A stretch of 64,000 nt of DNA from Paecilomyces variotii (lineage: Eukaryota), in NCBI GenBank assembly GCA_004022145.1, contig RCNU01000003.1, one strand, 5' to 3'. The notes under the pieces are model-generated. The model made no database searches and was not told the DNA's origin. It saw only the letters and a list, made by a program, of their open reading frames with translations. Made by a program: the position numbers and the translations under genes. Of the stretch, positions 1-32,352 are shown in pieces. Each line of letters begins with the position of its first letter. Within the stretch, counting starts at the first letter, position 1.

Positions 1-474
1 TGTATGTGAATCTGGGCTTTTATACCAGGTCCTGGCTCGGAGACATATCGGATACTTCTGATATCGTCCACGATGGGCCCCACTCCAGCTGCAGTAGTAT
101 CTGCTCTCCAGATGCAGATGGCCCTGGTAAATTATCCGTGTAGCCTAGTTTGGGCTCAAAATGTCTGCTGCGATGGCAGAAAAAAGCAATAAGGAGGGGC
201 TTTTAACTTTTAGTTCGAGGATGTACCATATGTAGTTCCACCAAGGTAGCAAGGTGGCATAGCTCCCTTTCTGAGCAAGTAAAGGACGTCTTCGACTACC
301 CTGTTTATTCACGTATTTGGTATCAATCACGAATTCGTTGGCTCAGAAATGGGGAAGTAAGTTACTCCGTTTTGAGTCTGTTGCGGCTCGACAACATCAA
401 CCATGTCAACCTACCTATGGGCAACAGCAGTCTACTACTCGACTACTCCGGTGTTTGAGACACAAAAAAACAAG

Positions 475-489
475 AAAAAAAAAAAGAAA
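475..489 (-). terminator. Pol III oligo-T terminator of tRNA-Ser
   Basis: Minus strand reads TTTC then an 11-T run, starting about 5 nt after the discriminator base. Confidence 0.75.
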
Positions 490-494
490 GCAAC

Positions 495-659
495 CGTCAG
501 CGACAGGATTCGAACCCTGATTGGTACATGTTAGTTTATCTTGTTTTTTTCTGTAATTCAGTTCGAAGTAGACTTACTGTGCGGGCGAACCCATTCGATG
601 TCTACTCCTATCATAGATAGTATTCGAGTCGAACGCCTTAACCACTCGGCCACACTGAC
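495..659 (-). tRNA. tRNA-Ser(CGA) interrupted by a 23-nt canonical intron (622-600) and a 61-nt spliceosomal-type intron in the T-stem (577-517)
   Basis: Spliced sequence (81 nt): GTCAGTG-TG-GCCGAGTGGTTAAGGC-G-TTCGA-CT(CGA)AA-TCGAA-TGGGTTCGCCCGC-ACAGG-TTCGAAT-CCTGT-CGCTGAC-G. It has a 7-bp acceptor stem, D-arm, perfect anticodon stem, long Ser-type variable arm (GGG-TTCG-CCC), perfect T-stem and discriminator G. A box TGGCCGAGTGG, B box GGTTCGAATCC, and a T-run follows. Confidence 0.93.
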
Positions 660-983
660 ATAACTGGCGGAAATTTTTGCCAGCGGTAGTCTAATAATAC
701 TACTCCGCGTGCCTTATCAAGATCGAGGCGATCCCTCCGCGCGGAGCTTGTAGCCTGAGTACGGCGCCGCAGAGACACCCGTTTAGCTCCACGTCGGCCT
801 TCCTTCAGTGATCACGGCGGAGGGACAGCTTCGTCAGCATACACACCTTTATACCTCGACTTGCTGCCATCGTCCAGCTCTTTAGACCCTGAAATCATCA
901 TCTTGCCCTCCTTACCTCCTCCTGGGGCCTTGAATTATTCTCTCCGCAGCCCGTCCCTGTTGACACCCGCCTCCTTCCCTACC

Positions 984-2287
984 ATGGAGGGTGACAAGAT
1001 CGCCGACTTCCTCGCAGACCAGCGCGATCAAGCTCCTGCGGAGGCGCAGGCCTTTTTCTTGAGCTTCGAAGATTTCTGGGAGAGGAAGCTATGGCATCAA
1101 CTCACGAATTCCCTCATAGATTTCTTCTCTCTACCAGAGAGCGCACCGCAACGGCTACCTCTCTTCAAGTCGTTCATCCTCAGCTTCGCCGATAGGATCA
1201 ATCAGCTGAAGTTCGTGTCGCTGGGTTTGATGGCATCTACGCAATGCGCAGGTCAGTGGTTTTGATATATACAATCCCTTGCTCCATTGGGTGCTACGTT
1301 GAAGCTCGTCCGATCTGAACAGAGGCTGACATCACTGGTGGTCCTTAGATGACAATGAACGATTTGCTTTCCTTACTTCCCTTGCAGACAAGGTCAACAA
1401 GCCAGACTCGCAGGATGCATATGTCTACGCTTTGGCAGATGTGGCCAGCGTGAAGCTACGACTAAAGGATTTTGAGGGAGCGCGCAAGGACTTGGATACT
1501 TCTGAGAAGATCCTGGACAGATTCGACTCCGTTGAGACGGTTGTCCATGCTTCGTTCTACAAAGTAAACGCTGCTTACTACCAGGTATGTGGAAGACAGT
1601 TGATGCTTTTTAGATACTGCCATGGTTCTAATGTACGATCTCCAGGCCAAGCAAGAATTCGCCGCTTATTACAAGAACGCCCTGCTGTACCTCGCATGCA
1701 TCAACATTGAAGACTTGACTGAAGAAGAGCGTGTGTCGCGCGCATATGACCTCAGTGTTGCAGCCCTTGTTTCGGACTCAATCTATAACTTTGGTGAACT
1801 GCTCCTGCACCCTATCCTGGACTCCCTCACCGAGACACCCCACGCCTGGCTGCGGGACCTTCTCTTCGCCTTCAACCGTGGCGATCTCACCGCCTACGAC
1901 GTCCTCGCCGGTAACATCACCAAGAACCAGCTCCTCGAGCAACACCGTATCTTCCTGTACCAGAAGATCTCTCTGTCGGCCCTAACAGAGACTGTCTTCC
2001 GTCGTCCCCCGCACGACCGCACCATGACCTTTGCCGCCATCTCCGCCGAGACGAAGGTCAAGCCTGATGAAATCGAACATCTCGTTATGAAGGCGCTATC
2101 CCTCGGTCTGCTGAAGGGTAGCATCGACCAGGTCGCTCAGATCGCGCGCATCAACTGGGTCCAACCCAAGGTACTGGACATGAAGCAGATCGACGGCATG
2201 CGGAGGAGACTGAAGGAATGGGACGCTGGCGTCAACCAGCTCGGACACTGGATCGAAGGTGTTGGAAAGGATGTCTGGGCTGCTTAG
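984..2287 (+). CDS. RPN9: 26S proteasome lid subunit Rpn9 (PSMD13); 3 exons (984-1251, 1349-1584, 1646-2287)
   Basis: N-terminal FEDFWERKLWHQLT, IYNFGELLLHPIL, PCI-domain C-terminus (EHLVMKALSLGLLKGSIDQV...WVQPKVL); GT-AG introns join the frames. Confidence 0.95.
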
Positions 2288-2671
2288 ACAAAATGAAAGA
2301 ACCCCGCGACCTTCTCCCGGCCGCGTTGTATCTTTTACCAAATCCGAGCTTAATTTTATTCGGGTCAAATATATGATCCCAATGTTTGCGGATTTCAGGA
2401 ACCAAAATACGAAAGAACAAGACCTAGGGTAAGATAGGTTCTGCGGAAACCGAGTCTCTCGAAGTAGAAAGGCCCGGTACGATATGATATTGATGATATC
2501 CATTAGTAACAAAACAAATAAGGAAGACAATGTCTTAACTTCCCGTCATTTATTCCCGCTCGTAGTTATAATAGTACAAATACAATACATGTCTGGAAGA
2601 ACACATCACATGTTTGAAGTTCAATACAATTCCCTCAAAGGAGAAAGCAGGACCAAGCAGGTAGGTTGGAC

Positions 2672-31045: not shown

Positions 31046-32352
31046 GATGAATTTACAGTATAGGATGTTTTGGGATCTCACTTGAAGGAAAGGAATCAAC
31101 CGGATGGCGGTGATGCGGGGTGGACTTAAAAGGCCGATGAGGGGAATGCGCGTCGGAGAAAGGGCAATAATGTGAGATGGGTGATCGAAAAAAAGAATCC
31201 GACCGAGGCAGAGGGCGGAATCGAACTGGTGCCACTGGCTGCTCGGGAAGGGTACTTAAGTCACTTTAGGGGTTTCCTGTGTGAGGAGTGGGACGACCTA
31301 GCTCAGAATCCATTTCTTGCCTTTTACCAGAGATGGCCGTGGGTCGCCCACAAAACTCCTCTTCAGCAATCTTTGGAATCCTACTGTCGACACAGCAGTC
31401 GATAATTTTATTGTTTTTGTTTTTTATTCTTGTAGTCTAGTGTCTGGAGATATGCTTTCTTTTTTCTTGATTTTCAATTAGGCGTATTTGGAAAGATATG
31501 CAACATTTTGTGTTCTCGGGTGCGTGCCGATAATTGAAAAAACTCCGTGTGATTATGACTCTATACTACATACAGTCCAACACAGAACAGAGACGACAAT
31601 AGACCATATGACTGGACACTGTGCCAATATGAATCCATTTTCTAAAACCTAGTGTTCCAATTTACGTGTTTTCTTCCTCCTCTAGTACCGGGACATAGAT
31701 AAAAAGAGGTTCTTTGGCTTCTCAAAAGCTTCAGCTGCAAGGACGCAAGCCGAGTCTGGATTATTAAACACTATATCTAACTACTGCCGTTGCCTGATGG
31801 CTGGTAGCCCTCCTGTCACTGTACTTTAGGCTATGTTCCAAAATGAATTTTTTTTTCCGTTCCAATACGTCCACAGACCGCATCTGGATTCTCGTATATC
31901 TAAACATCGCAAATCCAACTATTTCTCTCGAAAGCACTAATCGATAACTAGTCTAGGTATTGCATAAAGTACAATCGTCCACAGGATGGATATTGTTCTC
32001 CTGCCTTTCCTCCATACGCGTGAGATCAATAATAGAGGGTCCTAGTAGAAGTATCTTGCCTGGGGAGCTGGATGATACCATGACGTTCCGTATTTACTAA
32101 GAACATCACTATCTTCTATATACATTTAAATTGTCTGCCTTTCTACAGTAGAGATATAGCGCCCAGTCTGTGACTTTTACGGTTATTTTGCAGTTGCTAT
32201 ATGTTGATTTTCTCGAAATACTTCGCAAAGGTTTCGTAGGGGACTGAATTACAGCTAAGTATTTTATTTCCCATAAATCGATATGTGCCCTAAAACATCA
32301 AGCCTTCGAGTACTGGCTCAGTTCTTGACGCCCTAAACGGTTAAGGATAGTT

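Follow-up and report, generated by a model that had tools for sequence, protein, structure and literature searches.

Can a transfer RNA (tRNA) gene be interrupted by an intron that is left to the spliceosome? The accessible parts of reviews from 2023, 2025 and 2026 describe tRNA splicing as independent of the spliceosome and treat the two classes of intron as unrelated. The question is raised by a stretch of 64,000 nucleotides (nt) from the fungus Paecilomyces variotii (GenBank assembly GCA_004022145.1, contig RCNU01000003.1), referred to here as the window. Reading its minus strand directly from 659 to 495 gives a class II tRNA-Ser(CGA) gene with two interruptions. The first is a canonical intron at tRNA position 37/38 (622-600), of the kind handled by the SEN endonuclease and a ligase; the second lies in the T-stem instead and is a 61-nt insert (577-517). 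By all sequence tests applied, this insert is a spliceosomal-type intron. We lean toward a live gene, the transcript of which would be processed by the spliceosome first and by the tRNA endonuclease second.

Results

An earlier inspection of the letters alone, the sequence-only reading, had placed an intron at 517-577 in the T-stem of a minus-strand tRNA-Ser(CGA) gene, and all of its coordinates and motifs proved correct. The insert begins with the 5' splice site GTAAGT (577-572), which fits the extended consensus GTRAGT of U2-type introns. It contains the branch site ACTAAC (535-530), of the CTRAY type, with the branch adenosine at 531, 14 nt before the last base at 517, and it ends with the 3' splice site CAG (519-517). 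A slide of the borders by one base is possible, 577 and 516 both being G, and removal of 576-516 gives the same product; only the register 577-517 gives GT..AG. The strict pattern GTAAGT-N25-55-CTAAC-N5-25-CAG was matched twice in 128 kb (both strands of the window), as against 0.35 matches expected from shuffled sequence. A three-signal match whose borders also coincide exactly with the gap in a T-stem is far beyond chance, and a chance origin is excluded.

The insert had also been likened to the messenger RNA (mRNA) introns of the window. The likeness holds for the splice signals and for length: the median length of 19 introns predicted by a heuristic in the window is 62 nt, and intron 2 of the neighbouring gene RPN9, given earlier as 61 nt, has that length, with its RNA joint seen in two of the four sequencing runs compared. 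It fails for base composition. The insert contains 48% A and 21% T, and none of the 19 predicted introns reaches 45% A. A second argument had been that the insert holds no run of four or more T. This is true, and it carries no weight, because 15 of the 19 predicted mRNA introns likewise have none.

Other kinds of intron were considered as well. The insert folds poorly (minimum free energy -2.1 kcal/mol, z-score +0.88; 172 of 200 shuffled sequences were at least as stable), and among Rfam families other than tRNA no match to it was better than chance. Being unstructured, 61 nt long and without an Rfam match, it is excluded as a group I or group II ribozyme. Away from position 37/38, the tRNA endonuclease requires a bulge-helix-bulge (BHB), in which two 3-nt bulges with the cut sites flank a helix of 4 bp. 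Such a fold was sought at the junctions of the insert, and one of four central-helix pairs was found in either register, under a rule so strict that the 37/38 intron of the same gene scored just two of four. Since the endonuclease route lacks a BHB and a ribozyme is excluded, a spliceosomal intron remains.

The tRNA itself becomes visible when the insert is taken out. The features of a class II tRNA-Ser, namely the long variable arm, the serine anticodon, G73 and the D- and T-loop bases, are complete only with 517-577 removed. As had been foreseen, a tRNA scanner misses the gene: ARAGORN reported no tRNA on the intact sequence, neither in the whole window nor in the 221-nt locus, and called tRNA-Ser(cga) with a 23-nt intron after in-silico excision of 517-577. 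The sequence-only reading had further stated that a cut at GT and AG restores the T-stem within an intact cloverleaf, and the ARAGORN product bears this out, with all stems perfect or containing G-U pairs. The acceptor stem has 7 bp, including one G-U pair, and the D-stem has 3 bp with a D-loop, GAGTGGTTAA, of the usual type. The gene is 165 nt long, of which 81 nt remain once both intervening sequences are taken away.

The rebuilt tRNA was compared with other Ser(CGA) genes. The comparison set comprised at least 119 metagenome loci with a Ser(CGA) 5'-half pattern, from which 135 matches were listed; 134 ARAGORN Ser(cga) calls in these loci gave 94 unique sequences. Among the 94 unique genes listed, 43 columns show conservation of at least 95%, and at all 43 the tRNA with both interruptions sliced out has the consensus base. 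The search pattern itself had fixed 26 of these columns, which leaves about 17 as independent. The rebuilt T-arm is identical to that of several uninterrupted genes among the matches listed. The closest gene among them is identical at 72 of 81 positions, so the set holds no close relative. The decay of conserved positions or stems that a tRNA pseudogene would show was not seen; the exons are undecayed.

Contigs of four other sequencing runs (X7, X16, X17 and X19) were compared with the locus. X7 and X16 behave like DNA, because they retain the RPN9 introns and have contigs of up to 176 kb; X17 and X19 are RNA libraries from two studies, and RPN9 is spliced in both. The contigs of X7 and X16 span 300-598, insert included, without a difference within 501-598. 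In five further runs from two studies, 97-98% of the sampled words of window positions 300-2300 were present. Because the insert is found in the contigs of other runs, an artefact in the assembly of a single data set can be excluded.

The RNA libraries contain a second haplotype of the gene. Record 5 of X17 (106 nt, depth 61.7), which covers the 37/38 intron and five bases of the 5' leader, and record 12 of X19 (46 nt, depth 41.3), which covers the 37/38 intron, both match the insert over its first nine bases (569-577) before continuing with eight letters unlike the window. From the other side, record 11 of X19 (116 nt, depth 4.78) matches 501-534, that is, the 3' exon and the last 18 bases of the insert including CTAAC and CAG, and then runs into 42 letters unlike the window. 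These two loose ends appear to tile a second version of the insert, because seven letters are shared between their printed parts and the lengths agree (23 + 8 + 9 + 2 = 42). The second version is about 58 nt long; its start, GTAAGTCTA, and its 18-nt end are unchanged, and its middle has about 60% identity in a comparison by hand and is too diverged to align at 90% likeness.

The exons of the two haplotypes do not differ. No difference was found in 59 + 16 exon positions (none in exon segment 1; 501-516 identical), whereas the 37/38 intron of the variant differs at four sites (an insertion at 606, 614, an insertion at 619, and 621). If differences were placed at random, the chance that all four would fall in the 23 intron positions of 98 is 0.0025. 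Record 2 of X16 carries nearly the same 37/38 intron variant and continues through the spacer into RPN9; the variant therefore sits at the same locus. Frozen exons, two changing introns and retained splice signals are what a working gene with a working intron would be predicted to show.

Several smaller observations were made on these contigs. Across the four runs at least three versions of the 23-nt intron occur, with G or A inserted after 606. Contigs of X17 and X19 end 17 nt into the variant insert, where further polymorphism is possible. Between 300 and 720, strain differences in X7 and X16 consist of AAT after 324, GACTA after 440 and substitutions at 337, 418, 424, 690 and 712. Another contig of X7 (19.5 kb, depth 72.6), also found in X16, matches 623-661 (the first 37 tRNA positions and two leader bases) with two mismatches and then continues into a different intron; it represents a second tRNA-Ser gene that has an intron at 37/38, from some member of the community. 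Record 6 of X17 joins 896 to 1606 on opposite strands and is most likely a chimeric contig. X17 and X19 give no cover over 702-835, and this gap was not used as evidence.

A palindromic contig, record 13 of X19, has both arms ending at 577, up to which a spliced and an unspliced form would agree, and was taken for a time as a hint of a spliced form. It was dropped as a break in the k-mer graph, since the end at 577 follows from a 30-base overlap that starts at the polymorphic site 606/607, with a word length of 31 assumed.

Discussion

Our analysis suggests a pathway in which two splicing systems act on one tRNA precursor. The gene has an internal A box and an internal B box, and a run of T follows it. 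RNA polymerase III (Pol III) would transcribe from the boxes and stop at the run of 11 T; this run and the one that follows it (464..485) are presumably the Pol III terminator, as judged from the known termination signal. The gap between A box and B box is 125 nt here, as against 41 in the uninterrupted state, and TFIIIC would be expected to tolerate such wide spacing. The nuclear spliceosome would then recognise GUAAGU, ACUAAC and CAG, release the 61-nt insert as a lariat and join A51 to G52. This joining would make the ACAGG/CCUGU T-stem, and the T-arm and the L-shape would form only afterwards. The folded mature domain is what RNase P, RNase Z and the endonuclease recognise. End processing by RNase P and RNase Z, together with CCA addition, would accordingly come after formation of the T-arm, and the endonuclease, measuring from the mature domain, would excise the 23-nt intron at 37/38, with the ends joined by the ligase. 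We infer each part of this pathway: transcription by Pol III, excision by the spliceosome, the order of the steps and the use of the product in translation.

The need for both the spliceosome and SEN had been proposed in the sequence-only reading. The marks of the intron, the perfect product, the lack of a BHB and a haplotype that keeps the ends of the insert are on its side. Other observations weigh against it. The joint 516>578, which splicing would create, was found in none of the contigs of X7, X16, X17 and X19, and contigs cannot show absence: mature tRNA, being short and modified, is under-represented in such libraries, and rare forms are lost from contigs. The unspliced form was found in the contigs of both RNA libraries, in which RPN9 is spliced, at depths similar to those of RPN9 mRNA. 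Unspliced RNA fits slow splicing and no splicing equally, and a dead gene would also be transcribed because its A and B boxes are intact. The region of the 5' splice site is paired with the 37/38 intron in the predicted precursor, which could hinder the binding of U1.

The haplotype evidence has its own counterweights. Two loose ends were joined by hand to obtain the second version of the insert, with 12 of its letters unread. Its diverged middle could reflect one replacement event rather than many substitutions, and identical ends of the insert are to be expected by default, because the flanks of the haplotypes differ by only about 1-2%. Relatives give no help either: none of the 135 Ser(CGA) matches listed from metagenome contigs has an insert in the T-stem, so such an interruption is rare. 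A pattern for the interrupted gene had no match in metagenome contigs, and a pattern one base shorter had none in prokaryote genome contigs. The count of Ser(CGA) genes for this fungus covers the 64-kb window.

The alternative that survives best is that the gene was disabled by a spliceosomal intron or an intron-like mobile piece, that its transcript stays unmatured and is degraded, and that decoding is left to other Ser(CGA) or Ser(UGA) genes. We consider this a real possibility, although a doubtful one. It accounts for the missing junction and for RNA-library contigs in which only unspliced forms occur. The failure to find an interrupted relative in the metagenome matches listed or by the pattern searches also agrees with it, as does a gene count limited to the window; multi-copy tRNA families are usual in filamentous fungi. 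A disabled gene is harder to reconcile with exons that have not decayed, as seen at the 43 of 43 conserved columns of the genes listed and in 0 of 75 exon differences between haplotypes with diverged introns. The splice signals, moreover, are perfect and are kept in both versions of the insert, and a likely terminator stands directly after the gene and none within it. For these reasons we continue to lean toward a working gene. All routes other than a working or a disabled gene are improbable, even when taken together.

Retention of the insert is very improbable. It would give a tRNA-like RNA with a very large variable region and a T-stem of 4 bp, or some other small RNA. The Rfam tRNA model RF00005 does accommodate the unspliced sequence, at a score that only just reaches threshold (29.3 bits; the gathering score is 29), and unspliced RNA is present. 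However, the threading is forced: it needs insertions of 58 nt and 38 nt, takes TCGAA inside the insert as a strand of the anticodon stem and draws the terminal CAG of the insert into the 4-bp T-stem. This mis-threading arises because the insert carries a copy of TCGAA, within the motif at 560-566. To our knowledge, there is no tRNA of this kind, and retention would leave the conserved splice signals without a reason while the middle of the insert is free to vary. Standard tRNA tools thus either miss or misread the split gene.

The palindromic TTCGAA/TCGAA recurs within the gene, at 560-566 in the insert, at 594-598 and 629-633 in the anticodon stem and at 508-514 in the T-loop; this recurrence might hint that the insert was derived from tRNA sequence.

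Excision of the insert by the tRNA endonuclease, or by another nuclease-ligase route, has some precedent, since tRNA genes with several introns at positions other than 37/38 are recorded for Cyanidioschyzon merolae and Archaea in the accessible part of PMC4033280. The same gene, moreover, already relies on the endonuclease for its 37/38 intron. With one of four BHB central pairs in both registers and no stable structure in the insert, such a route is hardly credible, and it leaves the full set of GTAAGT, ACTAAC and CAG unexplained. Least probable of all is an intron of an RNA polymerase II (Pol II) transcript, either an untranslated exon or a long non-coding RNA, overlapping the tRNA gene: fungal genomes are compact and RPN9 begins 325 nt away on the opposite strand, but the splice borders equal the T-stem gap to the base, no notable minus-strand open reading frame was found downstream of the tRNA, and the RNA contigs over the locus are short (106, 46, 153 and 116 nt).

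Spliceosomal introns in non-coding RNA genes are already known, and tRNA appears to be a host class for which none has been described in the literature searched. No paper reporting a spliceosomal intron within a tRNA gene turned up in our search, which did not reach subscription-only papers or supplements. The accessible text of PMC5855946 records such introns in the U6, U2, U5 and U1 small nuclear RNA (snRNA) genes and in ascomycete ribosomal DNA (rDNA), and does not list them for tRNA, in agreement with what the sequence-only reading had stated for U6 and rRNA genes. According to the same text, U6 introns are not conserved in sequence except at the splice sites (PMC5855946). U6 is a Pol III transcript.

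The U6 genes of fungi are the nearest parallel. As in U6, a small, structured RNA gene of the Pol III type carries a GT..AG intron with a branch site, placed in a part that is essential to the function of the RNA. The U6 intron of S. pombe has been shown experimentally to be spliced. Unlike U6, the tRNA host stands outside the spliceosome and carries a second intron of the endonuclease type, and the case presented here is known from sequence. The origin proposed for U6 introns, reverse splicing at the catalytic centre, is not directly applicable because a tRNA is not part of the spliceosome. The introns of U1, U2 and U5 snRNA genes (Rhodotorula) and of ascomycete rDNA are likewise spliceosomal introns in fungal non-coding RNA genes (PMC5855946). 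Their hosts, in contrast, are Pol II or Pol I transcripts, and none is a tRNA.

Among tRNA genes, the arrangement resembles that in Cyanidioschyzon merolae and Archaea in having more than one intron and a position outside 37/38. In the accessible part of PMC4033280, multiple or off-position tRNA introns are listed only for these organisms, and the BHB is described for archaeal introns and permuted tRNAs. Such introns are defined by a BHB and cut by the endonuclease, whereas the insert has no BHB and has GT, branch site and AG. Off-position introns also occur in algal nucleomorph tRNA genes. Group I and group II introns of bacterial and organellar tRNA genes offer another likeness, since they too are introns of tRNA genes that do not belong to the endonuclease class (Reinhold-Hurek and Shub 1992, as cited in a review). 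They are long, highly structured ribozymes, unlike the 61-nt, unstructured insert, which has no Rfam match.

The insert may have arisen by reverse splicing into the tRNA followed by reverse transcription, or by insertion of an intron-bearing element; both are possible. A direct repeat of 3 nt, CAG (579-577 and 519-517), borders the insert and would be a weak sign of the latter event. An introner-like or transposon-derived intron family would be expected to have numerous near-identical members in the same genome; no second copy of the insert was found in the 64-kb window, the best other blastn-short match being 12 nt.

If the insert is spliced, this tRNA would be the first known, in any organism, to depend on the spliceosome. 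Decoding of UCG would then be tied to spliceosome activity, and spliceosomal introns would be able to colonise tRNA genes transcribed by Pol III. Spliceosomal introns, found in transcripts of Pol II and in a small number of snRNA and rRNA genes, would no longer be divided from endonuclease-cut tRNA introns, and a second class of Pol III transcripts would be handled by the spliceosome. The locus would also offer a natural test of intron gain in structured RNAs. A stronger version of this view, that the gene is the sole source of tRNA-Ser(CGA) in the fungus and needs the spliceosome and then the endonuclease and ligase in series, seems rather unlikely to us. Genes of this kind escape standard tRNA finders, so that more of them may lie behind apparent gaps in the tRNA sets of fungi.

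Features of the locus and other observations

The coordinates of the gene, its parts and its neighbour are collected in Table 1.

Table 1. Parts of the split tRNA-Ser(CGA) gene and of the adjacent RPN9 gene, in window positions.
Feature	Position	Strand	Remarks
tRNA-Ser(CGA) gene	495..659	-	G1 = 659 to discriminator G73 = 495; RF00005 29.3 bits
Exon segment 1, tRNA positions 1-37	623..659	-	ARAGORN and sequence; holds A-box-like motif and anticodon
37/38 intron, canonical, endonuclease type, 23 nt	600..622	-	ARAGORN intron call; after A37 = 623
Exon segment 2, tRNA positions 38-51	578..599	-	Anticodon-stem 3' strand, variable arm, T-stem ACA
61-nt spliceosomal-type intron (by sequence), between T-stem positions 51 and 52	517..577	-	Sequence; ARAGORN after removal
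Exon segment 3, tRNA positions 52-73	495..516	-	B-box, acceptor 3' strand, discriminator G
Acceptor 5' strand	659-653	-	
Acceptor 3' strand	502-496	-	
A-box-like motif	652-642	-	TGGCCGAGTGG; sequence
Anticodon stem TTCGA/TCGAA	633-629 / 598-594	-	
Anticodon CGA	626-624	-	
Variable arm, 13 nt	593-581	-	
T-stem 5' strand	580-578 (ACA), 577-517 (61-nt insert), 516-515 (GG)	-	
B-box	516-506	-	GGTTCGAATCC; sequence
T-loop TTCGAAT	514-508	-	
T-stem 3' strand CCTGT	507-503	-	
Run of 11 T	485-475	-	Begins 10 nt past discriminator
Run of 7 T	470-464	-	Sequence
RPN9 / PSD13 proteasome lid subunit gene	984-2287	+	Pfam PSD13_N, PCI and Rpn9_C on last exon
RPN9 intron 1	1252-1348	+	97 nt; RNA joint 1249>1347
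RPN9 intron 2	1585-1645	+	61 nt, GT..AG register; RNA joint 1580>1642

In the predicted fold of the precursor, 600-608, the 3' part of the 37/38 intron, forms 9 bp with 565-573, just past GTAAGT. A helix between the two introns was considered and rejected; the pairing is taken as chance, and it is lost in the variant haplotype in a comparison by hand.

In the metagenome comparison set, 116 of the matches listed had 22-42 nt between anticodon loop and B-box. The distance was 59 and 65 nt in two others, which have a long 37/38 intron and a tandem partial copy, respectively. The remaining 17 matches listed escaped the B-box expression; by eye, most have ordinary variant T-loops, and the rest are cut by the contig end or degenerate. 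Among the loci L003 (301-), L108 (381-) and L005 (156-), two have the 5' half of a tRNA-Ser followed by unrelated or degenerate sequence, and the third contains a tandem partial copy; repeats derived from tRNA are a possible explanation.

The window contains no other tRNA, and B-box-like motifs occur in it at chance level (23 found, 16.8 expected). The RPN9 gene is divergent from the tRNA gene, its ATG at 984 lying 325 nt from the tRNA 5' end. Both of its introns are of the GT..AG type, and the joints of both were seen in the same number of runs, two of the four compared. Further along, a U5 snRNA gene lies at 31283-31399 on the plus strand (RF00020, 75.5 bits); the match is full-length (1-117) and uninterrupted.

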